Shown here in pieces: positions 1-53,807 of a stretch of DNA of 53,807 bases. The notes below the pieces were generated by a model, which saw only the letters and a program-made list of their open reading frames with translations, was not told the origin of the DNA and made no database searches. A program made the position numbers and the translations under genes. Source of the stretch: a virus (lineage: Duplodnaviria > Heunggongvirae > Uroviricota > Caudoviricetes); the IMG/VR virus record IMGVR_UViG_2718217709_000003; one strand, written 5' to 3'. The stretch's first letter is position 1. Every line of letters starts with the position of its first letter.

Positions 1-725
1 ATGACGGTCGCCCAGTGTCTCGACTACTGGTTCGACAACTACGTCTCTACAACTCTCAGAGAAAAGACCCAGGCACTTTACCGATCAACGGTTATGAAGC
101 GCATGCATGACGCCTTTCCTAATCGTCCGGCATCTTCTATCACGGTTAAGCAATGGGTTGACCTGCTTACCGAAGAAGAAAGAGATAATCCACGCCGAGC
201 AAGGCAGGTGCTAAGTCAACTAAGATCAGCAATAAGTTGGTGCATGCGGCGTCAGTTGATAGATAGTTGCGCAATTATGAGCATCCAACCAAGGGACTTC
301 GGCTCCCGCGCTGAGGTAGGGGATCGGGTACTGTCGTATCACGAACTGGCTAAGATTTGGCTTGCTATTGAAAGAAGCCGTGCGTCTACGTCAAATAAGC
401 TACTTCATCAGATGCTTATGCTGTGGGGGGCGAGGCTCTCAGAGCTTAGGCTGGCAACAAAGACAGAGTTTGACCTGCTGGACAACGTATGGACCGTACC
501 GAAAGAGCATAGCAAGATGGGTAATGTTATCCGCCGTCCAATCTTCGAACAAATTAAGCCTTTCCTCGAAAAGGCCATGACAACGTACAATGATGTTCTT
601 TTCCCTGGAGAAGACATAAACAAACCGATCAGCATCGCTGCAGCCAACCGATTCGTAAATAGAATAAGGGGAGGGATGGATATAGGTTACTGGCGAACAC
701 ATGATTTCAGAAGAACGCTTGTTAC
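1..725 (+). pseudogene. P4-type tyrosine integrase, 5' portion (runs off the window start; interrupted by IS100)
   Basis: Frame-1 translation ends in the integrase box ...WRTHDFRRTLVT before the reading frame enters IS sequence at 726; the 3' portion resumes after the IS. Confidence 0.7.
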
Positions 726-3028
<2,303 letters not shown>

Positions 3029-3227
3029 CTTAATTCTCCAGGCAAAAAGAAACCGCCATATAGCGGCTCTATCAGATATGTACAGGCCTCATCGAGTGTG
3101 AGGCTGTGTGATTTCTTTATTTCCACTCTTAATGTTTGTCAGTGAATGGTTTCTCTATCTCCATTAATGCCTTATTCATCTCATTTCGTAACTCTATAGC
3201 CATCCTGACGGCTTCAACCTGTGCAGG

Positions 3228-4286
3228 ATGTCGGTTATGGGCGATTTAGCCATGAGGGCTAACGTCGCTCTTTCTCAGGGACCGGAAGCCTACAGTAAAT
3301 TCATTACTGACAACAAGGACAGGTTAAATCGCGTTGGTGCTAATGCTGACTGGATGATTCAGACAGGTATCCAGAATCCAGAGCAGCTATCACACATGCT
3401 GACTACTATGTCTCTCGGTGCGCTTGGACCAGAAAAGGCGTTTGCTGTTCAGGATAAGATGGCTGGTCGTGAAATTGACCGAGGCAGGCTGGCAGAGACA
3501 ATCCGCAGCAATCAGGCTGGTGAAGCACTTCAGGCGAGAGGGCAAAACCTTTCCTATCAGTCAGCAATGACTGGGCACAATATCGCAGCACAACGCTTGG
3601 CTCTGGATCAGCAAGAGTTCGGGTTTAAGATGCAGCAAGCGCAGGAAAAGGCTCAGCAGTTGATTAGTGAAGCACCTAAGCTGTCAGTAAACATGGAAAA
3701 AGGCATCGAGACGGCTGTAAACAATGCCACAGCATCATCAAACTCAGCCAATTCTATGAGTGCGCTTGCTCAACAGTTCAGAGCAGAAAAACCAACGACA
3801 GGTTTGTTCGGTAACGCACAGAACATGTTCGCAAAACTTACCGGAAGCGATACGACATTGCGTGATTTGCGCATCCGCCAAAATGCCCTTGTTAACAGTC
3901 AGGTTCTTAAATTCCTACCTCCCGGCCCAGCAACGGATAAAGACGTTGAGATCGTTCGGCAGGGTGCGCCAACTGACATGGATAACCCTGAGACGGTCGC
4001 AAGATGGCTTGATGCAATGGCAAACCTTGAGCGACGAAACGCGCAGTTTAATGAGTTTAAAGCTGAGTGGATGAGCGCGAATGGCAATCCTGGACAATCG
4101 CGTAATGGCGGTCAGATATTGGGGTTGGATGTTAAAAAAGGTGAATCATTGGGGAGTGCCGTTAAGCGGTATATGTCATTGAATACTGACGCAGCGCCAG
4201 CACAAGATTCGACACCTTCAGGAGAACCACGGAATCAGGTTGGATCATATACCTCAAAATCAGGCATTCAATTTACGGTGGAATGA
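3228..4286 (+). CDS. Hypothetical protein (352 aa); possibly a P22 gp20-like ejection protein
   Basis: Long ORF rich in Ala/Gln/Asn, translationally coupled (ATGA overlap) to the next ORF; lies upstream of the immI region and tailspike where P22-like phages encode ejection proteins. Product is inferred from position only. Confidence 0.4.
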
Positions 4287-6124
4287 TGAAAGTAACTGCA
4301 AACGGTAAGACATTTACCTTCCCTGATGGTACGAGCACGGAAGATATTGGAGCCGCCATTGATGATTATTTTGCTGGTCAGGTTGTTCAGCAACAAACAG
4401 TTAATCAGGCCAATAATGCACCAGTACGTGAAGAACCATCATTGATGCAACAAGCTGGCGATTGGCTCACTGGTGGTCAAAGTGCAGGGCAAATTGCAGA
4501 ACAGGCTGGTCGTGGTCTGGTAAACATACCATTTGACGTATTGCAGGGTGGCGCAAGTCTGATTAATGCAATCAGTCAGGGGCTTGGTGGGCCAAAAGTT
4601 TTGGATGATGTTTATCGTCCAGTAGACAAACCGACAGACCCATACGCACAAGCCGGTGAAACAATTGGTGGGTATTTAGTTCCAGGAGTTGGAACGGCAG
4701 GAAGCATGGCTATTGGATCGCTGGCAGAGGCCGCAAATCAGAAAGGCGATTTCGCACAAAATGCAGCTAAAAATGCCGGAGTTAACCTTGCCGCTCAGGG
4801 TGTTCTTTCCGCAGCAGCAAAGGGAATAGGGCGTGGAATAACGGCTATAAAAGGTGATATTGCGCCAGAAGTGGCGAAGAAAATTGCCACATCAGAATCG
4901 ATGGGCGTGACACCAATGACATCTGATGTTATCCCGCCGAAAAATGCTTTCACTCGCGGCCTTACTCAGGATGCCGAGGGGGCTTTGCTCGGGACGGGCT
5001 CAAAGCGAGCAGAGCAATATGCAACGCGGAGTAAGCTGGTAAGCAATTATTTTGACCGTTTTGGTGAGTACAACCCTGATGATGTGGTGAAATCTCTGAC
5101 CACCACGTTAAGGGGGCGGAAGGATGCCGCTGGCGCTGTTATCAATGACGTCACCAATAAAATGGGTAATGCCGCAGTTGATACCACAAATACCATGAAT
5201 GCTCTGAATACAGCGATCGCAAGACAGGAACGGCTTGGGACGTCTGCCAATCAAAGCCTGCTTACATCCTTGCGTAACCTACGTGAAGAATTAGCAAACC
5301 CTGCAACTGATTTGGATGTTACGTTTGATCTCTTGCGTCAGCACAGAACAGCATTTAGATCTAATGTTCAGGGAGATGCTATGGTCTTCCCCAACCAGGC
5401 AAAAGCAGCTACCAATATGGTAGAGAATGCAATGTCAAAAGACCTTCGTAACGCAGTTGCTAAAAACCTCGGTGCATCAGACGCAGCAAAATACCTTAAA
5501 GCAAATTCCGATTATGCAAACGTTTATAATAAGGTGCTTAATAAAAACATTGCCAACAAGCTCAACAAGGCAAGCAGTGAAGCCAGTCCTGAACTTATAA
5601 ATACCGTTGTATTAAGCAGAAAACCATCTGACGTGAAACGAATCTGGAGCGCACTGGATGATAAGGGGAAAGATGCTATGCGTGCAGCTTACGTCAGCAA
5701 AATAGCGGAAAAGACCGGGGACTCTCCAGCCAAGTTCATCACTGAAGTTAATAAGCTGAAATCTCAGTCAGGCGGTGAAATTTACAACACTATTTTTTCT
5801 GGAAAGCACATGAAAGAGCTTGATGCTCTTCATGAAGTTCTACAGCAAACAGCAAGGTCAGACACCGCAAATGTAGTAACTCAGACGGGGCAATCGCAAG
5901 CCAACAGGATAAGGACGATTGGCGCAACTGCGACCCTTGGCGTATCAATGGGGCTTGAGGCTGGTTTTGGTGCAATGATGCGCTTGTATGAGTCCAAAGC
6001 AGCAAGGAATATGCTTCTTCGTTTGGCAAACACCAAAGCAGGAACACCAGCCTATGAAAGAGCGATAAATAACGCTGCGAATGCCATCAGACCGCTGTTT
6101 GCTACTGAGGCAACACAGCAGTAA
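4283..6124 (+). CDS. Hypothetical protein (613 aa); possibly a P22 gp16-like ejection protein
   Basis: Long Ala/Gly-rich ORF, about the size of P22 gp16, in the matching position before the immI region; assignment is positional. Confidence 0.4.
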
Positions 6125-6148
6125 CGTATGGGAAATTGGATTCAATCG

Positions 6149-6538
6149 CTAACATTTTCTTTTTACTTTTCCAACAAAAGCTTTGGTTGAATCCATATTT
6201 CCATAACCGGAAATGGTTTTTGACATTAAAACTGTTCCAGTAGGATGTATTACCCATGAGTCGATAACGCGTTGAGTTTCGCCATTCGCGCCGATTCCTA
6301 TGATGGAGTTTTTAGACAATGCTTTGTAAGCCATGCCGCCCGCATCTGTCCCAGAATATGTGATGCTGGCATCTTCACCGTTTGTCTTAATGATGAATGT
6401 TCCACTAAAACCATCTTCTTCCGGATGGAAATTATTTCGTTCTGAATAGCTTATTCCGCGCATATCTCCAACGACCCAGCACTCTGCTGTAGCCCCAAAA
6501 GATATGAATAAGAACATAGCAGTAAGAAATTGCTTCAC
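6149..6538 (-). CDS. Secreted protein of unknown function (129 aa, N-terminal signal peptide)
   Basis: N-terminus MKQFLTAMFLFISFGATA looks like a Sec signal peptide; sits where P22-like phages carry sieA. Confidence 0.5.
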   Translation of the reverse strand: MKQFLTAMFLFISFGATAECWVVGDMRGISYSERNNFHPEEDGFSGTFIIKTNGEDASITYSGTDAGGMAYKALSKNSIIGIGANGETQRVIDSWVIHPTGTVLMSKTISGYGNMDSTKAFVGKVKRKC

Positions 6539-6655
6539 GCCAACCTCCTTAGTTTTGAGCAGGATACCATGAAAAAAGTAAACATCTTTTGCCTACTTCA
6601 CATTTGAATGGTTTGTCATTAGGATGTTTCCGGTTTTTTAAATATGGAAATTGAT

Positions 6656-7075
6656 ATGAAGAGGATTATTGGCGTCGTTGCTGGCGCTATATTGTTATCT
6701 GGGTGCGCAACTATTGTTGGTGACGAAACGCAGCTTGTGCAAGTGAACAGCAATCCTTCCGGTGCGAGCTTTAAGGTAAAAGACGAATCAGGCGTGATTG
6801 TTGCGCAAGGTAAGACCCCGCAAGGAGTAACTCTTGCCAAGTCAGATGGTAGTTATTTTGGCAAAAAGAGCTACCAGATCACTATGGAAAAGGATGGGTA
6901 CGAACCAGTTACCCTGCCAATCAAAGCCAATGCTAATGGCTGGTATATTGGTGGAAACCTTGTGTTTGGTGGGTTAATTGGTTGGCTTGCTGTAGATCCT
7001 TTTAATGGTGGGATGTATACCTTGAAGCCAAAAGAGGCAAACGCATCTCTTATACCATCAACAAAGCAAGACTAA
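6656..7075 (+). CDS. Lipoprotein of unknown function (about 139 aa)
   Basis: Lipobox LLSGC after a hydrophobic N-terminus (MKRIIGVVAGAILLSGC); followed by a strong intrinsic terminator. Confidence 0.55.
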   Translation: MKRIIGVVAGAILLSGCATIVGDETQLVQVNSNPSGASFKVKDESGVIVAQGKTPQGVTLAKSDGSYFGKKSYQITMEKDGYEPVTLPIKANANGWYIGGNLVFGGLIGWLAVDPFNGGMYTLKPKEANASLIPSTKQD

Positions 7076-7083
7076 TAAATAGG

Positions 7084-7108
7084 ACCCACCTTCAGGTGGG
7101 TTTTTTGT
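7084..7108 (+). terminator. Rho-independent terminator after the lipoprotein gene
   Basis: GC stem cccacc-ttcag-gtgggt followed by a T run (ttttttg). Confidence 0.6.
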
Positions 7109-7343
7109 ACAAATCCTTCAGCGTATCAAATACCATCTTCTTAACAAGCTCTGACTGCTCATCAGCGAGTCGTTCTGCATCGTCGCGATATCCAGTCACA
7201 GGCGATGGTTTTGATAGAGCATCTTGGACGATTTGTAACAACTCGGAGTTCATTGATCTCCCATTCGCCTCCGCCCTGAATTTTAATTTCTCCCTTACTT
7301 CCATAGGCATACGGAAGTTAAAGTGCGGATCATCTCTAGCCAT
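7092..7343 (-). CDS. mnt: Mnt repressor (ribbon-helix-helix), P22 immI region
   Basis: 83-aa protein MARDDPHFNFRMPMEVREKLKFRAEANGRSMNSELLQIVQDAL... matches P22 Mnt as I recall it. Confidence 0.85.
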   Translation of the reverse strand: MARDDPHFNFRMPMEVREKLKFRAEANGRSMNSELLQIVQDALSKPSPVTGYRDDAERLADEQSELVKKMVFDTLKDLYKKPT

Positions 7344-7370
7344 GCCATCACTCCAAGTTAGTGTATTGAC

Positions 7371-7391
7371 ATGATAGAAGCACTCTACTAT
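7371..7391. promoter_or_regulatory. Arc operator overlapping the Pant promoter
   Basis: ATGATAGAAGCACTCTACTAT matches the P22 arc operator; a TTGACA -35 hexamer sits immediately upstream (7366-7371). Confidence 0.7.
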
Positions 7392-7400
7392 ATTCTCAAT

Positions 7401-7417
7401 AGGTCCACGGTGGACCT
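7401..7417. promoter_or_regulatory. Mnt operator (17-bp palindrome)
   Basis: AGGTCCACGGTGGACCT is a perfect palindrome matching the P22 Omnt sequence. Confidence 0.7.
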
Positions 7418-7433
7418 ATATTGTGAGGTGAAT

Positions 7434-7595
7434 ATGAAAGGAATGAGCAAGATGCCGCAGTTCAATTTGCGGTGGCCTAAAGAAGTATTGGATTTGGTCC
7501 GCAAGGTGGCGGAAGAGAATGGTCGGTCTGTTAACTCTGAGATTTATCAGAGAGTAATGGAAAGCTTTAAGAAGGAAGGGCGCATTGGCGCGTAA
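7434..7595 (+). CDS. arc: Arc repressor (53 aa)
   Basis: [53 protein letters not shown]; the ORF track extends it upstream, but the ATG at 7434 gives the canonical 53 aa. Confidence 0.85.
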
Positions 7596-7663
7596 AGTTG
7601 AAGCCCCAACTGCGGGAACAGTCAGGGCTTCGGTTGTCAGTAAATCCGTGGAGAAAAACCAAC

Positions 7664-8566
7664 ATGAATAGTATAGCAATTTTAGAAGCAGTGAACACCT
7701 CTTATGTACCATTCAACGGTCAGCAAATTATCACCGCCATGGCTGCCGGAGTTGCATATGTTGCGATGAAGCCAATCGTTGAAAACCTTGGAATGAGCTG
7801 GTCAACGCAGCAAACAAAACTCATGAAGCAGATTAGCAAATTCAACTGTGTTCATATGAACATGGTTGCCGCTGATGGGAAGCTTCGTAAGCTACTCTGC
7901 CTTCCTTTGAAGAAGTTAAATGGATGGCTGTTCAGCATCAACCCTGAGAAAGTTCGTGCTGACATCCGTGATAAACTGATTCAGTACCAGGAAGAATGCT
8001 TTACTGTACTGCATGACTACTGGACAAAGGGAAAGGCAGAAAATGCACGTAAGAAAACATCTGTTGATGACAGGACTCCGCTTCGTGATGCTGTAAATAT
8101 GCTAGTCAGCAAAAAGCATCTAATGTACCCAGAAGCTTATGCAATGATTCATCAGCGTTTCAATGTGGAAAGTATTGAAGAGCTTGATGCATCTCAGATA
8201 CCGCAAGCCGTAGAGTACATCCACAGGGTAGTGCTTGAAGGTGAATTTATCGGCAAACAAGAGAAGAAAACCAACGAGCTTTCTGCAAAAGAAGCAAACA
8301 GCCTTGTATGGTTATGGGATTATGCCAACCGCTCACAGGCATTATTCCGCGAACTGTATCTGGCGCTAAAACAAATTCAATCGAACTATTCCGGCAGATG
8401 CTACGACTACGGTCATGAATTCTCGTATGTTATCGGAATGGCGAGAGACGTTTTAATAAACCACACACGAGATGTTGATATTAATGAGCCAGACGGACCA
8501 ACGAATCTTTCCGCATGGATGAGACTTAAGAATAAAGAATTGCCTCCTTCAGTACATAACTACTGA
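7664..8566 (+). CDS. ant: Antirepressor Ant (300 aa)
   Basis: Directly downstream of arc as in P22 immI; start taken at MNSIAIL, which gives 300 aa. Confidence 0.7.
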
Positions 8567-8585
8567 CAGATAACCAACGCAACGA

Positions 8586-8609
8586 CCCAGCTTCGGCTGG
8601 GTTTTTTTA
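8586..8609 (+). terminator. Rho-independent terminator after ant
   Basis: Stem acccagc-ttcg-gctgggt followed by tttttttat. Confidence 0.6.
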
Positions 8610-8666
8610 TGCCCAAAATTCACCGTAGCTACGCTGCGGCGATTCCTTGTATCTGGAGCAAATTAA

Positions 8667-11168
8667 ATGACAGACATTACAGCCAATGTTGTAGTAAGCA
8701 TGCCTTCGCAACTCTTCACTATGGCGCGTTCTTTTAAAGCCGTAGCCAATGGCAAAATTTATATCGGTAAAATTGACACTGACCCGGTAAATCCTGAAAA
8801 CCAGATTCAGGTCTATGTGGAGAACGAAGACGGCTCTCACGTTCCTGTTGCACAGCCAATCGTCATCAATGCCGCAGGGTATCCAGTATATAACGGACAG
8901 ATTGCCAAATTCGTTACCGTGCAAGGCCATTCTATGGCTGTTTATGATGCGTATGGTGCTCAGCAGTTCTATTTTCCTAATGTGCTGAAGTATGATCCAG
9001 ATCAACTACGTGCACAACTTTTAAGCCCATTGGATGGACTTGGAGATAACCTTGTTAACGTAAAGCAACCAGGCATGTCGTCAGACAGAAGAACTGTTCA
9101 TGATAAAATGATTGAGTCAATCAGCATAGCTGATTACATTGTAAATGACAGCAGCATAACAAATGCAATTATAAATGCCTTAAGTTCAAACGTAGGAACT
9201 ATAATTATTCCTCCTGGTGAGTTTGTTGCAAACCCGTCAATAAAAGATGTTTCTGGATTATTTAAGTTGTTTTCAAGATGTGAGTTAAGGGGGCGGCTTA
9301 CAGTTAATATTCCTCCTGGCTATTCATATTTTACAGAAAAGACCATTGTTAGTTGTATAGGCGCCCATAATTTGACAATTAAGGGTGTCAAATATGAAAC
9401 ATCAATAACATCACTTGTATCAGTTGCTGGTTCGAAGAAAAATTATTCTGTAACGATATCGCTTTCTGATGCTTCAAATGTTTCTGTTGGTGATTATATC
9501 ATAATTAGACATGACGTTTCAGGAACCGGTGCATATCACATGCACTGTGGAGGATGGAAAGTACTGTCAGTTTCTGGAGCAAATGTTACAGTAAATAATA
9601 CTTGCCATCTTGATAACTTCCCTGAATCGACATTAACTGGAGGATCGGTATCTATAATTAAGTCGGTTCTCAAATATACTGGTTGTGATGGTTTTGCCGT
9701 GTCAGGTGGTGATTGTATTAATACAATTGATGGTGTAGCCATTGTTGGTGATTACTCGGTAGCAGAATCTATAGGCACAATTGGAGCGCATGGGTTCACT
9801 ATTGCCACGCCTGATATAACAATTGATGAACCAGATCCATCAAATAAAGTATTTGACATGTCTGGTAATTTAGCAATTGGTCCTGATATTGTTATATCAG
9901 GGTGGGGGGAGCAGGGATTTGTTGCTTCTGGTCGAGCAGGTGTTGTATGTAATTTTATAGCTTCATCATCTAATAGAAAGCGCGGTATTTACGCGGAAGG
10001 AGCTCATATCAGAGGAAAATTCATGGTTTGCTCTGGTAATGGTGAAGATGGGATTATATCTGATATCGGTGGTGCGATTCAGGCCAACGGATCTGTATGC
10101 TCAGGAAATGGGTTGAATGGGTTCTGGTCATTTAATAACAGTGAGTTAAGCGCGCCAAATGGTGTTGCGTGTGGTAACTCAACAAATGGTATTGAGGCCA
10201 GGGCGTTATCAAAAGTTAATTTCGAAAACGGTAGATCATATCTAAATGCCAGAAATGGAGTATCAGCGTCATATGGTGGAAACATAGCTTTCACTGGTGG
10301 AACATCTAGCGATAATGTAATAGATGGTATCTATTCTGTTTACAACGCAACAGTAGCAGCTAATAATGCAAGTTCGAAAAACAACAGAAGGTATGGTGTT
10401 AACTGCACAGATTCTATGATAGTTATGACTGGTAGCGGAGATGTGTCAGGAAATGTTGCTGCAAACTATATAGATAACGGTGGCGGGGTAATTATAGATA
10501 CGGAAGGAGAGGTGATTCCTGTTAATGCACATCCGCAGAGAAATCTCATGCTGAGGAATGCAACAACTCTTTCTGGTTGTGATATTTCACCTTCATCAAT
10601 TGGTGATATTACCATTTCGTTAAAAAGCTCTCCTTCTGCAGATTTAAGTGATCGTTATGTTTTTAAAGCCGATGGAACTCAGCATCCATCTGGTGATGCA
10701 ACCCAAAATTTGGGGCGCGCGAGCAACAGATATAATGTTGGATATTTTGCCGGAGGTACGCAATCAAGTTCTGATGCAAGACTCAAGACAGCAGTTAGAG
10801 GTATGACCGCTGATGAAATAAATGCCGCAATGAAGATTGCAGAAGTTCTAGGTTTTTGGTCTTGGATTGATGATGAATCTAAAAGACTGCATGCTGGAAC
10901 GACTGTTCAGAAAGTTATTGCAATACTTGAGGAGAATAATCTTGATTGGAAAAAATACGGATTTATTGGTTATGATGCTTGGGATGATGAATTTGAATAT
11001 GTTACTGAAATTGATGAATTTGGAAACTTAGTTAAGAATGGAGAGATGAAGTTGATTAGAGCGGCTGGTGATCTTTGGCAGTTTAGAGATCAGGAGCTTG
11101 ATAGATTTATAATGAGAGGTCTTTTCGAAAGAATTAGAAAGCTTGAAGAATCGTTATACCAAAGATAG
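8667..11168 (+). CDS. Tailspike (833 aa): P22-type head-binding N-terminus, beta-helix receptor domain, C-terminal intramolecular chaperone
   Basis: First ~110 aa ([59 protein letters not shown]...[15 protein letters not shown]) match the P22 gp9 N-terminus; central SGNG/GxNG repeats typical of a parallel beta-helix; C-terminus ...[11 protein letters not shown]...GFWSWIDDE... resembles the peptidase S74 autochaperone. Confidence 0.8.
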
Positions 11169-11282
11169 TAATATCAATGGGTATAATCATTTCTATATAA
11201 AAAACAGATAACCAGCAAATATCACACAAAGCTTTGCACTGGATTGCAAGGCTTTGTGCTCTTCGATAGTGGTTAAGGCGGA

Positions 11283-11351
11283 TCACTCCACCTTTTCATC
11301 AATCCAGTCCGCCCACCATTGCATCATTTCTCTGCGCTTATCGTGGCAGAT
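11283..11351 (-). pseudogene. 3'-terminal fragment of a P4-family integrase gene
   Basis: Last ~22 codons ...SICHDKRREMMQWWADWIDEKVE* resemble the conserved C-terminal tail of P4-type integrases; upstream codons are not integrase-like. Confidence 0.45.
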
Positions 11352-11931
11352 AGATGCCTCACTATCACACGGTGATGGTTCATTACTGGTTTGCATAATG
11401 GATAGAGAACTGCGGATAAAAGATATCCCAAAACCCCAAAATCTCATCTTTAGGGGTTGCAGAAAGGGAGGCGTGAACAAATACCTGCGCATGAAAACGG
11501 AACTAGTCCAGATGTGATGTTTGTGGTGATCACATACATCATTAACGATGCTCGTTATGGTGAGTTTGATGACTACCCGCTGAAGTAAAAATTGTGTTGT
11601 GTACCAAATTGCGTACCAAACTAAAATCACAAATCATGAAGCCCTTGTTCATGGCGGTTCTCAGTGGTGTTGCGCGTAATCGTGAAACAAAAAGGTAGAT
11701 TGTTGCTTACCGTCATTCATCATTAGGTTAAATCCGTTATTTCTGCTGTCTGCCAGAGTATCAAATATCACCGTGCTAATCAGCTTTAGCGCGACAATTT
11801 GGCAGCGAGTGACAACAGATCATGTCAGATAAAAATGAGATAGTAGTCACATTTTCTTGCACTTTATTCCAGCCAGTTCATAAGTATTTCCGTAAAAAGA
11901 ACAGCTATTTGAAACACCTGAGGGTTTGCTG

Positions 11932-11957
11932 TTGAAACGCCGTCTTATTATTGCTGC
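11932..11957 (+). pseudogene. dacD: dacD 5' fragment (first ~9 codons, TTG start), cut by IS2
   Basis: Encodes (M)KRRLIIAA, then IS2 begins; the rest of the signal peptide (SLFVFNLSSGFA) resumes at 13289. Confidence 0.7.
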
Positions 11958-11968
11958 TGGATTTGCCC

Positions 11969-12874
11969 CTATATTTCCAGACATCTGTTATCACTTAACC
12001 CATTACAAGCCCGCTGCCGCAGATATTCCCGTGGCGAGCGATAACCCAGCGCACTATGCGGATGCCATTCGTTATAATGCTCGAACGCCTCTGCAAGGTT
12101 CTTTGCTGCCGTTAACCCGTCTGGTTTGGGCATGATACTGATGTAGTCACGCTTTATCGTTTTCACGAAGCTCTCTGCTATTCCGTTACTCTCCGGACTC
12201 CGCACCGCCGTGTTCTTCGGTTCAAGTCCCAACATCCGGGCGAACTGGCGTGTTTCATTAGCCCGGTAGCATGAACCATTATCCGTCAGCCACTCCACTG
12301 GAGACGACGGAAGATCGTTGCCGAAGCGGCGTTCCACCGCTCCCAGCATGACGTCCTGTACTGTTTCACTGTTGAAGCCGCCGGTAGTGACCGCCCAGTG
12401 CAGTGCCTCACGATCACAGCAGTCCAGCGCGAACGTGACACGCAGTCTCTCTCCGTTATCACAGCAGAACTCGAACCCGTCAGAGCACCATCGCTGATTG
12501 CTTTCTTTCACGGCCACTCTGCCTGTATGTGCCCGTTTCGATGGCGGTACAGCAGGTTTTCGCTCAAGCAACAGCGCATTCTGGCGCATGATCCGGTAAA
12601 CACGTTTGGCATTGATCGCAGGCATACCATCAAGTTCTGCCTGTCTGCGAAGCAGCGCCCATACCCGACGATAACCATACGTGGGCAGCTCTCCGATAAC
12701 ATGGTGTATACGGAGAAGCACATCCGTATCATCAGTGTGACGACTGCGGCGGCCATCCATCCAGTCATCGGTTCGTCTGAGAATGACGTGCAACTGCGCA
12801 CGCGACACCCGGAGACAACGGCTGACTAAGCTTACTCCCCATCCCCGGGCAATAAGGGCGCGTGCGCTATCCAC
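11969..12874 (-). CDS. insD: IS2 transposase InsD (OrfB, 301 aa)
   Basis: IS3-family DDE transposase ORF within the IS2 boundaries. Confidence 0.85.
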
Positions 12875-13197
12875 TTTTTTGCCCGTCCATATTCAACGGC
12901 TTCTTTGAGGAGTTCATTTTCCATCGTTTTCTTGCCGAGCAGGCGCTGGAGTTCTTTAATCTGCTTCATGGCGGCAGCAAGTTCAGAGGCAGGAACAACC
13001 TGTTCTCCGGCGGCGACAGCAGTAAGACTTCCTTCCTGGTATTGCTTACACCAGAGAAATAACTGGCTGGCTGCTACACCATGTTGCCGGGCAACGAGGG
13101 AGACCGTCATCCCCGGTTCAAAGCTCTGCTGAACAATTGCGATCTTTTCCTGTGTGGTACGCCGTCTGCGTTTCTCCGGCCCTAAGACATCAATCAT
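12832..13197 (-). CDS. insC: IS2 InsC (OrfA, 121 aa)
   Basis: [40 protein letters not shown]... HTH protein; overlaps insD in the usual frameshift arrangement. Confidence 0.85.
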
Positions 13198-13288
13198 CTG
13201 TTCTCCAATGACTAGTCTAAAAACTAGTATTAAGACTATCACTTATTTAAGTGATACTGGTTGTCTGGAGATTCAGGGGGCCAGTCTA

Positions 13289-45955: not shown

Positions 45956-46312
45956 TCAGCCTGCGATTTTTCCTGGTTTTGGCTGAGTATAGAATCGCCC
46001 AATCTCAAGAAATGAGCGTTGTTGGTCTGGTGTCATGTCGTCAAAAGTATCTATTAGTTTTTGTTTTTCTGGGGAAATTTGATTCTGGTTTCTAGTCATA
46101 CCATCTGTGCTCATTCCAGTGAGCAACCAATTTACATCAACATTAAACTCTTGATGCATCTTTAACAGAAACTCCCCTCCAGGCATCGCCTTTCCATTTT
46201 CAATCTGACTGATACCACCATTAGAAATACCTAAGCGAGCTGCAAATTCTCTCTGGTTCAACCCTGCTTTCTTCCTCACAGAAATAACGCGCTCTCCTAT
46301 ATCTTTGCTCAT
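45956..46312 (-). CDS. Phage repressor, HTH XRE family (118 aa)
   Basis: HTH LNQREFAARLGISNGGISQIENGK; divergent from the Ner-like gene as in the Mu c/ner arrangement. Confidence 0.75.
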   Translation of the reverse strand: MSKDIGERVISVRKKAGLNQREFAARLGISNGGISQIENGKAMPGGEFLLKMHQEFNVDVNWLLTGMSTDGMTRNQNQISPEKQKLIDTFDDMTPDQQRSFLEIGRFYTQPKPGKIAG

Positions 46313-50042: not shown

Positions 50043-50553
50043 TGTTTATTTTTTCCCTGGGGCAGGGGCTGCCGGCATAGTGGTTTTATTGGCAGAGGAA
50101 GACGATTCTCCTTTTCTACCGGAATCGCGCTCGAACGTCACGATGTGCTTGCTTTTGGGCTTTTCTGAGTAATCCAGGCTATCATGCTTATTGTTTTGAG
50201 TAGTCATTGGAATCATCCTTTTTGTTGCGGGTCATGTTTCAGCAAACTCGATTCTAAGTTGCCAGGAAGGATGATTTCAATGCCCGACTTATCTATCGTA
50301 TAGCGGAAAAGAATTTCAGTTCTGTTCACCAGAACCCATGTTAACCCACTCCAATTCGTTATTTATCTCACGGATCCCCCTTCATTTATCTCATGTCTGA
50401 TCAGAAATGAAGCCTGTTGAGTGAGATTCACCGGTTCTGGTGCAGAAGCTGCAGATGGCGCAGGGTAAGGACATCTTCTCTTGCCTGCTTAATACAGGAC
50501 AACAGTGCTGTTTCTGTGGTTAATGGCACTATACCCTGCATCACTGCATTGTC

Positions 50554-50748
50554 TTACAGCAACTGGTGAGGGCTGGCATAAGTTGCCGGTGTTTCGGTAG
50601 AGTCACGGTCATCCACCACGCGGAGTGAATAACCTTTTTCAGCGGCCTTATTAATCAGTTCAGTGATATTAACACCATCAATGTCAACGACAATGTGCCC
50701 CATATCCAGCGCCTGTACGTTAACGCTGTCGGCTTCCAGTGTCATCAT
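50554..50748 (-). CDS. yeeW: YeeW-like protein (64 aa)
   Basis: Small ORF whose start overlaps the end of the cbtA reading frame, as in CP4-44. Confidence 0.55.
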   Translation of the reverse strand: MMTLEADSVNVQALDMGHIVVDIDGVNITELINKAAEKGYSLRVVDDRDSTETPATYASPHQLL

Positions 50749-51118
50749 TTCGCCTCCGGATACTTACCCAGGGTAATGTTATTTACCGTTCTGTAATTGT
50801 CGCGGGTCATCAGGCCGGTCGCCCTGCGAGCCCGGAGGATATCGATGCTGTTTATTAACTGAGAGCGGGTACAGGCGCTGAATCCCGGCTGGTCGGTAGC
50901 ACCAGCGCGTATTTTTCCACGAGAAAGTTCACCGCATCACACAGTGAAATGCCTGCCTCAATATGCTGCTCAATCACACGTTCATCGGCAAAAGGTGTGT
51001 CATTCAGTGTGAGGCCATAGTGCTGGTCCAGCAGTCGGGACAGCAGTATCTGCCAGATTTCAACAGGAGACGGGCGAGAACTGGTCGCCTGCCCGGGTAA
51101 TACAGGTAATGTTTTCAT
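50745..51118 (-). pseudogene. cbtA: cbtA (yeeV) toxin gene with an internal frameshift
   Basis: N-terminal 71 aa match CbtA; after ...VEKYALV the conserved C-terminus ([46 protein letters not shown]) is encoded in a different frame; shift near 50895-50902. Confidence 0.7.
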
Positions 51119-51206
51119 ACTGAAGATTTTCCTGATATGCAGATATAAAAATGGAAAAGTGGCGTGGTGAAAACACCAGGCCGTAGCAGAAGGCTATTCT
51201 GGAGAG

Positions 51207-51575
51207 TTAATTTTTCATTTCGGGCGTCGGATAAACAGCCAGATAAACGTAACCACAACTGCTGAGGGTATCGGCTTTGCAGGTCAGCCCTTTTGCATAC
51301 AGCGTGACGGTATGCTGATGGCGGGGATTCAGTTCACCGCTGGTGAGCATGAGTTCCAGTTGTTTCATCAGCAGCGGAAAGGCCTGGTCCAGGTGGTACG
51401 CATCTGCATCGCTGAACAGGCCTCTGATACCGGCGCGGTCGGCAAGGTAATGCAACCGGTTACCCTCCTGCACCAGACGTGCCCCGAAACAGGGCGTCAC
51501 GGTGCAGGGCAGCCCCCACCAGGGGCGGTCGTGATTGTCGTCGGGAAGTGTTGTCCCGGGGAGTGTGTCTGACAC
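51207..51575 (-). CDS. cbeA: CbeA (YeeU) antitoxin, 122 aa
   Basis: MSDTLPGTTLPDDNHDRPWWGLPCTVTPCFGARLVQEGNRLHYLADRAGI... matches CbeA from memory. Confidence 0.8.
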   Translation of the reverse strand: MSDTLPGTTLPDDNHDRPWWGLPCTVTPCFGARLVQEGNRLHYLADRAGIRGLFSDADAYHLDQAFPLLMKQLELMLTSGELNPRHQHTVTLYAKGLTCKADTLSSCGYVYLAVYPTPEMKN

Positions 51576-51648
51576 GATAAAATCCTTACAGAAAATCGGC
51601 TAAGAATGGTCCGGTAGTGGCGATAATTCTGCTCATCAGAATTCCCAC

Positions 51649-51870
51649 TCAGTTCAGGGTGACGCTCATCAGCCGGACATACGGACCAAAACTGTCCTTA
51701 CGACGTTCAGCAAACACGGCCAGCACACCGGGAATATCCTGCACTTCACGACCGGTATACGCTTCAGCACTGCCATGCCAGCGGTATTTACCGGTACAGA
51801 ACGGAAAAAGACGGGATGTCGGATGTTGTTGGTGAATACGCATGGCTTCACCACGGGTGATAATTTTCAT
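51649..51870 (-). CDS. yeeT: YeeT-like protein (73 aa)
   Basis: Small conserved ORF between yeeS and cbeA, as in CP4-type islands. Confidence 0.6.
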   Translation of the reverse strand: MKIITRGEAMRIHQQHPTSRLFPFCTGKYRWHGSAEAYTGREVQDIPGVLAVFAERRKDSFGPYVRLMSVTLN

Positions 51871-51932
51871 AATGGGATACCTCTGAAGACAGAAGATAAA
51901 AGTGAAAACAGGTGTGATGTGGTTGTGAAGGG

Positions 51933-52409
51933 TTAAAGCAGACCATGTTCGGCAAAGGAGAAAACCTGGTTGCCACCGACTATCAGATGGTCCGGCACCC
52001 GGATATCCACCAGGCCCAGTGCCTGTACCAGACGTTCCGTGATAAGGCGGTCTGCCTTACTGGGTGTGACTTCACCGGAGGGGTGATTGTGTGCCAGCAC
52101 CACGGCAGCGGCATTGTGGTACAGGGCGCGTTTAATCACTTCCCGGGGATGGACTTCCGTGCGGTTGATGGTGCCGGTAAAGAGGGTTTCACCGGCAATC
52201 AGTTGATTCTGGTTATTCAGATACAGCACCCGGAATTCTTCACGCTCCAGTCCCGCCATGTTCAGAATCAGCCATTCCCGTGCTGCACGGGTGGAGGTGA
52301 AGGCCACGCCGGGTTCATGAAGATGGCGGTCCAGGGTTTTCAGGGCCCGTTGAATGAGGCTGCGCTCGCCGGGCGTCATCTCTCCGGGCAGAAAGGAAAG
52401 TTGTTGCAT
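51933..52409 (-). CDS. yeeS: RadC-like JAB-domain protein YeeS (about 158 aa)
   Basis: JAMM motif HNHPSGEVTPSKAD; start taken at MQQLSFLPG. Confidence 0.75.
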   Translation of the reverse strand: MQQLSFLPGEMTPGERSLIQRALKTLDRHLHEPGVAFTSTRAAREWLILNMAGLEREEFRVLYLNNQNQLIAGETLFTGTINRTEVHPREVIKRALYHNAAAVVLAHNHPSGEVTPSKADRLITERLVQALGLVDIRVPDHLIVGGNQVFSFAEHGLL

Positions 52410-52424
52410 TGTGCTTCTCTCCAT

Positions 52425-52904
52425 TCAGTCGATGATGCGCATAATGGCGCTGCATTCCGGATGCTGCAGGGCGTAATCCCGCAACCGGTAATAATGGACC
52501 GTCATGGCATAATTCTCCGTACGACAGGCATGATGACTGTACGTCATCAGACAGGCGGCAATACCGGCGGCTTCCGGGCTCATTTCTGCGCGGTTACCGT
52601 TCATGGCATTGAACAGTACCCATGTTTCGTCATCATCGTCATCCGGTTCGGGTGCCATAAATGCCCCGCCGTTGTTCAGGGTGTACAGATTCCAGATACC
52701 ACCGCAGTAGTCTTCGCACAGACGGTCCATCCAGCCGAAGACACGGGGCTCCAGGGTCACCCACTGTGGAATGAGGCCAAAATGCTGCGGCCAGAAGCTG
52801 ATGCGCTGTTCATCAGGGACGAGGCTGGCAACCAACTGAGGCGGATTATTCTCTGGTGTTGTAGCTGAATAAATTGTGGGGGTATTCTGAGAAACGGTTT
52901 TCAT
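52425..52904 (-). CDS. Antirestriction protein, ArdB/KlcA-like (159 aa)
   Basis: Acidic stretch PEPDDDDDETW and the conserved island position upstream of the radC-like gene. Confidence 0.6.
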   Translation of the reverse strand: MKTVSQNTPTIYSATTPENNPPQLVASLVPDEQRISFWPQHFGLIPQWVTLEPRVFGWMDRLCEDYCGGIWNLYTLNNGGAFMAPEPDDDDDETWVLFNAMNGNRAEMSPEAAGIAACLMTYSHHACRTENYAMTVHYYRLRDYALQHPECSAIMRIID

Positions 52905-52985
52905 GAGATAACTCCTTAAATAACAAATAAATGTGTGTTTTTCAGGAACGAAAGCTGAATGATTCCCTCACTCAGGGAAACGGCA

Positions 52986-53807
52986 TCAGCGCAGGCTCTC
53001 CAGCATCGTTTCTGCCATCACCCACAATGCGCGATTGAGCTTAATGTCGGTATCAATGCTGTGAATGGCACGGGTATGGATACGTTTTCCTTTTGCACTG
53101 CGACCGGAAATCCCGCCTTTCAGCATATTCTCCTGGATGGTCTGATATGCGCTCCACAGGTCCTTACCGTAATCCTCCCGGCGTCGCGGCGTCAGAATGT
53201 CGGCGGTGGTGACGGGCTGATGTTCGTCACCATAACGGTAAGTCAGTGCCGCCTGTGCCAGCGCCTGGCGTGCCGGTGGCGGCAGGACCAGCGACTGCAT
53301 GGCATCACGCTTCTCCTCTATCCGGTCAAACACGCCCACCACCTCGTAAGCCCCTTCGATAACTTTCTCCACTACATTTCCCCGGTGTGGAACACGCACT
53401 TCCCCCAGAGACTGGCCACAGACGCACCCGTTCTGGCAGACGAACCTGAAGTAACCCGGCAGCATCTGGTAGCTGGAGGTACCGTCATGAGAGTTGAGCA
53501 GAATAATTTCAGGGACATGTTCTCCGTTTATCTCTCCGGCCCGCCGCAGACGCAGCATGTGTTTTGTGTATCCCCGGCGGCCCGGGTCGCGCACACGGGT
53601 CTGGCAGGCGAAGAACGGCTGAAAGCCTTCCCGCTGCAGATTTTCCAGGACGGTAATGGTGGGAATGTACGCATACCGTTCACTGCGGGAGGTGTGCCGG
53701 TCTTCCCCAAAAATACTGGGTACATGGCGTATCAGTTCTTCATGTGTCAGCGGACGGTCACGGCGTATCTGGTTTGCAGCATAACCAAAACGACTTGCTA
53801 ATCGCAT
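52986..53807 (-). CDS. DUF932-family protein (YfjQ/YafZ-like, 273 aa); start codon at the last base of the window
   Basis: MRLASRFGYAANQIRRDRPLTHEELIRHVPSIF... typical of CP4-type island DUF932 proteins. Confidence 0.6.
   Translation of the reverse strand: MRLASRFGYAANQIRRDRPLTHEELIRHVPSIFGEDRHTSRSERYAYIPTITVLENLQREGFQPFFACQTRVRDPGRRGYTKHMLRLRRAGEINGEHVPEIILLNSHDGTSSYQMLPGYFRFVCQNGCVCGQSLGEVRVPHRGNVVEKVIEGAYEVVGVFDRIEEKRDAMQSLVLPPPARQALAQAALTYRYGDEHQPVTTADILTPRRREDYGKDLWSAYQTIQENMLKGGISGRSAKGKRIHTRAIHSIDTDIKLNRALWVMAETMLESLR

Follow-up and report, generated by a model that had tools for sequence, protein, structure and literature searches.

The immunity I (immI) region of phage P22 is one of the best-characterised phage regulatory cassettes, and its mechanism has been established in that phage (PMC2629481, PMC11016777, PMC3121763). 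In P22 (BK000583, X01916) the cassette has the gene order mnt-arc-sar-ant and is located between gene 16 and gene 9. The immI region of the Salmonella phage epsilon34 (EU570103) is known as the "ant moron" and consists of genes 16-18 plus sar. Both the epsilon34 ant moron and the forms it takes among P22-like phages, some of them from hosts other than Salmonella, have already been described, and the epsilon34 region was judged "apparently functional" in the genome paper of that phage (PMC2629481).

The copy of immI analyzed here lies in a 53.8-kb stretch of E. coli DNA, and this whole stretch is referred to as the window. The original prediction held that positions 7092-8566 of the window carry an intact P22-type immI switch that survives in a degraded element, and that its antirepressor could derepress a related prophage elsewhere in the genome. 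Judged by its sequence, this segment is a complete copy of the P22/epsilon34 immunity-I cassette, with mnt, arc, sar and ant all present. The cassette is an already known system and is essentially the epsilon34 allele. The region is found over at least 80% of its length in about 103 of 5426 complete E. coli genomes, and the exact proteins of the cassette are already annotated in RefSeq. The value of the present description thus lies mainly in correct annotation.

The immI cassette and its control sites

The cassette was aligned to the reference records of P22 (BK000583) and epsilon34 (EU570103). Over all 1475 bp, the immI DNA is 98.3% identical to epsilon34 and 89.6% identical to P22. Every defining sequence feature of a P22-type immI was found, namely Mnt, Arc, Ant, the promoters and operators, sar, and the location between gene 16 and the tailspike gene. 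The features of the cassette are as follows, with positions given in the window.

7084..7101, minus strand: hairpin terminator at the 3' end of mnt (terminator scan; an equivalent is annotated in epsilon34)
7092..7343, minus strand: mnt, encoding the Mnt repressor of 83 aa (Pfam Arc PF03869, 3.9e-30; Repressor_Mnt PF11423, 7.2e-19)
7366..7394, plus strand: Pant (TTGACA-17-TATATT), the promoter of arc and ant (promoter scan, 11 of 12 consensus positions; the same as the P22 promoter in BK000583)
7371-7391, no strand: Arc operator of 21 bp, ATGATAGAAGCACTCTACTAT (exact match to the P22 protein_bind feature in BK000583)
7371..7399, minus strand: Pmnt (TTGAGA-17-TATCAT), divergent from and overlapping Pant (promoter scan, 10 of 12 consensus positions; the same as the annotated P22 Pmnt)
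7401-7417, no strand: Mnt operator, a 17-bp palindrome, AGGTCCACGGTGGACCT (exact match to P22, BK000583)
7434..7595, plus strand: arc, encoding the Arc repressor of 53 aa, first gene of the Pant operon (Pfam Arc PF03869, 9.8e-31)
7596..7663, minus strand: sar antisense RNA, complementary to the arc-ant intergenic region directly before the ant start codon (Rfam RF00262)
7664..8566, plus strand: ant, encoding an antirepressor of 300 aa, 3' of arc (Pfam P22_AR_N PF10547, 2.9e-45; P22_AR_C PF10548, 2.3e-28)
7670..7698, minus strand: Psar, placed by its position relative to P22 and epsilon34
8584..8603, plus strand: ant terminator (terminator scan; equivalents are annotated in P22 and epsilon34)

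The original prediction had placed full-length mnt, arc and ant in this segment, together with a 21-bp Arc operator and a 17-bp Mnt palindrome in the arc-mnt intergenic region and a TTGACA -35 element. All of these were confirmed. The three ORFs have the lengths of their P22 counterparts and stand in the same order, both operators are identical to those in BK000583, and the TTGACA element is the -35 hexamer of Pant at 7366-7371. The description of the switch as intact in sequence was therefore correct, with an operator block that equals P22 at every base. The sar RNA, Psar and the two terminators were absent from that account and are added here.

The three proteins differ in how close they are to P22. 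Mnt is 98% identical to P22 Mnt (81 of 83 residues) and 99% identical to epsilon34 Mnt, and it matches PDB entries 1MNT and 1QEY. Its two Pfam domains correspond to a ribbon-helix-helix N-domain like that of Arc and to the tetramerisation domain at the C-terminus of Mnt. Residues 1-53 of Mnt, which include the DNA-binding N-domain, are the same as in P22; the two differences are N54D and T82P, and both D54 and P82 are the residues found in epsilon34. Arc is identical in 52 of its 53 residues to P22 Arc, the crystallised protein of PDB entries 1ARR/1PAR, and the sole change, R16K, is again the epsilon34 residue. Arc is 98% identical to epsilon34 Arc as well as to P22 Arc. A newer PDB match to Arc, 9PIO, presents Arc as a model substrate of ClpXP and was set aside as irrelevant. 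Ant matches its epsilon34 counterpart at 99% identity but P22 Ant at only 86%, and its differences from P22 (P233L and about 40 others) fall mostly within residues 21-80. No solved structure matched Ant in the PDB sequence search.

Decay specific to this remnant was considered for all three proteins. The sole candidate was Ant P233L, and it was rejected because L233 is a common polymorphism (27 of 119 close variants have it) and 316 contigs carry exactly this Ant sequence (P0001). The viable phage epsilon34 has the same Arc K16 and Mnt D54/P82, and Ant L233 is common, so the Mnt, Arc and Ant alleles do not represent remnant-specific decay. The same cassette with the same Ant allele also occurs, at several chromosomal sites, in prophages that have the virion-gene block upstream. 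The comparisons suggest that nothing in the cassette sequence points to a loss of function.

The control sites are conserved to the base. The mnt-arc intergenic region is 90 bp long and houses both operators. A 52-bp block, which extends from the Pant -35 element through the Arc operator to the Mnt operator, is the same as in P22 and is invariant in P22 and ten E. coli loci. In the alignment to BK000583, the stretch that begins at the mnt start and takes in Pant, Pmnt and both operators shows zero differences from P22. The epsilon34 Mnt operator is one base off, at position 7417. In addition, the window was searched for operators with 3 mismatches allowed, for which the chance expectation in the window is about 0 for Arc and 0.03 for Mnt. 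Each operator occurs in one copy, and no further Arc or Mnt operator copies, which would suggest other targets, are present in the 53.8-kb window.

The sar RNA scored 95.6 bits against RF00262, for which the gathering score is 43, and it aligned over the full length of the model (1-68). Its fold consists of two hairpins, with an energy of -29.4 kcal/mol and a z-score of -5.15, and it differs from P22 sar at two bases. Psar was missed by the consensus promoter scan and its -35 element is weak; its sequence is exactly that of epsilon34 Psar and is one base off P22. The hairpin at 7084-7101, taken on the opposite strand, follows the upstream lipoprotein gene.

The prophage remnant and the age of its deletion

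The host is E. coli, and the genes flanking the prophage are 100% matches to E. coli chromosomes. The prophage is P22-like and is integrated between sbcB and dacD. Outside the cassette it has the following features.

1-725 and 2680-2856, plus strand: tyrosine integrase gene, split (Pfam Phage_integrase on ORF 1..798; C-terminus in ORF 2629..2856)
726-2679: IS100, 1954 bp, a simple insertion that interrupts the integrase gene and has duplicated 5 bp of target, GTTAC (ends read from the sequence)
3234..6124, plus strand: 3' part of gene 20, followed by gene 16 at full length (both for ejection proteins), with the deletion joint just before 3236
6149..6538, minus strand: moron gene with a signal-peptide-like N-terminus, one of the "ant moron" pair
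6644..7075, plus strand: lipoprotein-like moron gene, the other of the "ant moron" pair
8667..11168, plus strand: tailspike gene, 833 aa (Pfam Head_binding, 1.4e-66, and Peptidase_S74)

This prophage is defective, with an integrase broken by IS100 and an internal deletion of roughly 30 kb. The xis-like gene ends at 3028, only 207 bp before the interior of gene 20 (3236). Homology to full-length gene 20 begins at 3236, and the Pfam Inj_translocase match of the gene 20 remnant covers only profile positions 112-217 of 218. The genes missing between the xis-like gene and the middle of gene 20 are immC and those for replication, nin, lysis, terminase, portal, scaffold, coat and head completion. A functional, particle-forming P22-like prophage is not encoded here, as the integrase is split and immC and the replication, lysis, terminase, portal and coat genes are gone. 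The term "degraded element" in the original prediction therefore holds, on account of the split integrase and the deletion into gene 20. The gene 16 product is annotated as an ejection protein of the P22-gp16 family. The two moron genes match phrog_2651 and phrog_6823, which are PHROGs without an assigned function, and both have the same RefSeq protein accessions in the prophage of O111:H- strain 11128.

A near-identical region is present in strain 254D-1, which came from a human diarrhoeal stool in Nicaragua. The order there begins with sbcB, an integrase pseudogene, IS100, a partial ORF, a small HTH protein and an N-terminally truncated ejection protein, and continues with gp16, two small genes, mnt, arc, ant, the tailspike gene, a HumD fragment, IS2 and dacD. 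The RefSeq annotation of this strain as having an integrase pseudogene agrees with the IS100 split, the partial ORF corresponds to the integrase C-terminus, and the gene 20 product is annotated as "missing N-terminus". The 254D-1 region differs from the window by one SNP at 8960 and by an ISEc23 insertion near 36.0 kb. In the window, an IS2 interrupts dacD within its first codons. The window also carries an apparently complete prophage of roughly 32 kb, related to Escherichia phage PhiKM and Klebsiella phage KP12, and a CP4-44-like cbtA/cbeA island. The second prophage is absent from LR883050.

Fuller relatives of the remnant were also found. O111:H- strain 11128 has a nearly complete P22-like prophage at the same site, with the nin, lysis, terminase, portal and coat genes upstream of gene 20, and the Mnt and Arc protein accessions of this prophage are the same as those in the 254D-1 region. 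The 5.4-kb right arm of the remnant (3236-8660) is 99.5% identical, without gaps, to prophages that keep the virion-gene block upstream, and 9151 bp of the remnant are 100% identical in seven complete genomes. For these two reasons the deletion looks recent and within a clonal lineage. Both gp16 and the tailspike are full length in the remnant. The apparent recency of the damage would explain why the right arm, including immI, has not decayed. The intactness of immI is thus unremarkable and is not evidence of selective preservation. When the original prediction spoke of a switch "surviving" in a degraded element, it was right that the switch is intact and that it lies in a remnant, but there is nothing special in this survival, since 9.1 kb of the remnant are identical in seven genomes and the whole arm is undecayed at 99.5%. 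At least two other independent remnants (locus L006, with eight similar places, and locus L010, which has a C2-type repressor, cro and cII upstream) keep the arm from gene 16 to the tailspike gene together with immI. This recurrence could be a hint of selection rather than recency alone.

Expected state of the switch and alternative explanations

The mechanism established in P22 was transferred to the window on the basis of near-identity. By this mechanism, Pant would transcribe arc and then ant. Arc would bind the 21-bp operator between the -35 and -10 elements of Pant and shut down both Pant and Pmnt. Mnt, expressed from the divergent, overlapping Pmnt, would bind the 17-bp palindrome just downstream and keep Pant off in the lysogen. 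The sar RNA, transcribed in antisense from inside the 5' end of ant, would pair with the arc-ant intergenic region and block the translation of ant. Ant, once made, would bind C2-type repressors non-covalently and inactivate them. The binding of Mnt and Arc to these operators and the action of Ant on a C2-type repressor are what we infer from the sequence.

In the remnant, Mnt would be expressed constitutively, Pant would be repressed and no Ant would be made. The sole likely activity of the cassette would be the action of Mnt in trans, on a related incoming phage whose operator is identical. Because Mnt and its operator are intact, ant is most likely silent at steady state. Since Mnt and Arc repress each other's promoters (PMC11016777), the toggle may on rare occasions flip to a state in which Arc and Ant are expressed. 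As an overall explanation, a complete P22/epsilon34-type immI in a recently broken prophage, locked silent by Mnt, is very probable.

The suggestion in the original prediction that the antirepressor could act on a related prophage leads to a rival explanation, in which the remnant Ant would be an active trans-acting inducer, able to release another prophage of the genome, lambdoid or P22-like, from repression. The biology behind this idea is real. The repressors of P22 (C2), L, lambda and 21 are all inactivated by P22 Ant, which has been proposed, as a speculation, to couple the induction of one prophage to that of another (PMC3121763, PMC3064807); there is also a precedent in a cryptic prophage, namely Rem/DicA of Qin (PMC10448788), and the Ant allele of the remnant is the same as in prophages with the virion-gene block. 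Given this range of lambdoid repressors, induction of other prophages by the window Ant would be plausible in principle, but it is disfavoured at steady state. Mnt, Pmnt and the Mnt operator are intact and the DNA-binding half of Mnt is that of P22, so Pant should be held off. No LexA box was found near immI or in the early region of the neighbouring prophage, the only convincing one being the sbmC box at 14521-14536, and no other inducing input was found near the cassette. P22 Ant is itself dispensable for induction (PMC3121763). Lastly, the 53.8-kb window encodes neither a C2-like repressor nor any repressor that contains an S24 peptidase domain, and the repressor of the neighbouring prophage is a 118-aa HTH protein that lacks this domain. 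An active inducer is therefore quite unlikely. A related explanation, which we regard as quite unlikely, is that immI is retained by the host as a module of prophage crosstalk, in which either Mnt would silence the identical Pant of incoming P22-like phages and so shield the resident prophages, or rare flips of the toggle would release Ant onto a repressor elsewhere. A conceivable target of Ant would be the 118-aa repressor of the adjacent PhiKM-like prophage; because this repressor has no self-cleavage domain, that prophage may need an antirepressor for its induction. Under this explanation the recurrence of independent remnants with the arm (L006, L010) would reflect selection. If it were true, it would be a further case of a defective prophage affecting how other prophages are induced or kept immune, here in a diarrhoeal lineage of E. 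coli, and would be relevant to prophage crosstalk and to how virulence phages are mobilised. The evidence favours crosstalk no more than it favours the default explanation.

The arm could also be viewed as a domesticated immunity module, selected since the remnant Mnt would silence the ant gene of an incoming P22-like phage and so protect the residents from Ant-triggered induction. One Mnt would act on many incoming phages because the operator block is invariant in the ten E. coli loci and P22, and the other remnants in which the gene 16-to-tailspike arm survives with immI (L006 with its eight similar places, and L010) are in line with such a role. However, there is no measurable selection signal, as the seven carriers do not differ in sequence and decay is equally absent from the whole arm, and remnants of every kind are expected among thousands of prophages. 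In addition, PADLOC gave no defence match for Mnt, Arc, Ant or the two morons. Domestication is thus very unlikely. The cassette might only look intact, with its substitutions relative to P22 (Arc R16K, Mnt N54D/T82P, and Ant P233L with about 40 others) being inactivating. These substitutions do exist, but Arc K16 and Mnt D54/P82 are the residues of epsilon34, whose immI was considered "apparently functional" (PMC2629481), Ant L233 is widespread, prophages with their virion genes in place encode exactly this Ant, and Mnt residues 1-53 do not differ from P22. Inactivation by these substitutions is almost certainly not the case.

Comparison with known systems

Antirepressors that act on the repressor of another or a defective prophage are known from the Gifsy prophages and from Rem/DicA of the Qin cryptic prophage (PMC3121763, PMC10448788). 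Only the concept is shared with the locus reported here. The Gifsy and Rem/DicA proteins are unrelated to Ant and respond to LexA or to other inputs, whereas control of the window Ant would be through Mnt, Arc and sar, with no SOS box near the cassette.

Much closer likenesses are found in E. coli prophages. The prophage of O111:H- strain 11128 occupies the same sbcB-dacD site and encodes the same Mnt, Arc and moron proteins as the window. The right arm of two further prophages (L007 and L008) is 99.5% identical to the window and free of gaps, and several of the similar E. coli prophages (L007, L008, L012 and L013) carry an identical Ant. The prophage of strain 11128 and these four keep the capsid-to-injection block, which was lost in the window, as was immC. 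The strain 11128 prophage additionally keeps the nin, lysis, terminase and portal genes that the window has lost. The tailspike bodies of all five differ from that of the window.

P22 immI has the same 52-bp block, the same Pmnt and the same ORF lengths as the window, and its position between gene 16 and gene 9 is equivalent to the position of the cassette here. However, P22 has sieA and orf59a upstream of immI, whereas the element in the window has two other morons there. The epsilon34 immI shares with the window its gene order, sar and the terminators, and a flanking moron gene of 139 aa is common to both. The two differ in immI by 25 bases, and the epsilon34 Mnt operator ends in C whereas the window copy is the perfect P22 version. 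In addition, the tailspike and gene 16 of epsilon34 differ from those of the window, and epsilon34 is a phage of Salmonella whereas the window phage is a deleted remnant in E. coli.

Internal deletion and insertions at the P22-like prophage

The P22-like remnant has been altered by an insertion and by an internal deletion, at the following positions in the window.

726-2679: IS100, 1954 bp, a simple insertion within the prophage integrase gene (region 721-2684)
2837-3028, minus strand: AlpA/xis-like gene, bordering the deletion joint
3029-3236: internal deletion joint, at which the prophage has lost about 30 kb
about 11959-13289: IS2 copy inside dacD

IS100 is flanked by a 5-bp target duplication, GTTAC, and the C-terminus of the integrase resumes in frame beyond it (2680-2856). 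The interior of gene 20 begins 207 bp past the AlpA/xis-like gene, and no IS element is present at the joint between them. Thus, the deletion of about 30 kb and the IS100 insertion are separate events. At the other end, comparison with O111:H- strain 11128, which carries a nearly complete P22-like prophage at the same site, indicates that IS2 interrupts dacD approximately 25 bp into its 5' end; apart from this, the right end of the prophage (11169-11958) and its counterpart in strain 11128 are collinear.

The immI cassette and the right arm were also kept in two independent degraded P22-like prophages of other E. coli genomes, in what was a tiny sample.

L006, 6245 onward: remnant in the first of these loci, together with eight similar places
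L010, 3181-3933: remnant in the second, marked by a DnaB-needle gene fusion

The cut in L006 falls within gene 20 at a different point from that in the window (equivalent to window position 3908), where the remnant is joined to csc-region DNA.

The second prophage and its surroundings

The DNA to the right of the remnant contains a second prophage, an island and an SOS-type operator.

14521-14536: canonical LexA box, CTGTATATAAAAACAG, just upstream of sbmC
about 17600-50100: second prophage, about 32 kb and apparently complete
17615-18316, minus strand: Gin-like invertase, adjoining the tail-fibre genes of this prophage
45956-46312, minus strand: HTH_3/CI-type N-domain protein, 118 aa
about 50100-53807: CP4-44-like island, directly after the second prophage

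The second prophage is akin to Escherichia phage PhiKM (97-99%) and also to Klebsiella phage KP12. Its head genes are FluMu-like and its tail is P2-like, and MuA/MuB transposase is absent from it. The early genes (plus strand, from 46406) are divergent from the late genes (minus strand). The 118-aa protein is likely the repressor of this prophage. It has no S24 self-cleavage domain, and therefore induction may need an antirepressor or another route; the search for LexA boxes gave none in the early region. The island contains yeeW, cbtA and cbeA, along with an antirestriction gene and two genes with a RadC/JAB domain and a DUF932 domain, respectively; its cbtA carries a frameshift in the near-identical strain 254D-1.

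Content of the right arm

6149-7075: two small "ant moron" genes, function unassigned
7596-7663, minus strand: sar antisense RNA (Rfam RF00262, 95.6 bits)
7670-7698, minus strand: sar promoter
8667-11168: tailspike, 833 aa

The sar RNA belongs to immI and was missing from the original prediction, which had listed mnt, arc and ant. The central body of the tailspike had no match among the tailspikes encoded at the other loci with immI that were compared. The first "ant moron" protein (phrog_2651) has a signal-peptide-like N-terminus, and the second (phrog_6823) is lipoprotein-like with a weak PEGA-domain match; PADLOC returned no match for either gene. Both could be lysogenic-conversion or exclusion genes. 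In P22, the position held here by these two genes is instead occupied by sieA.
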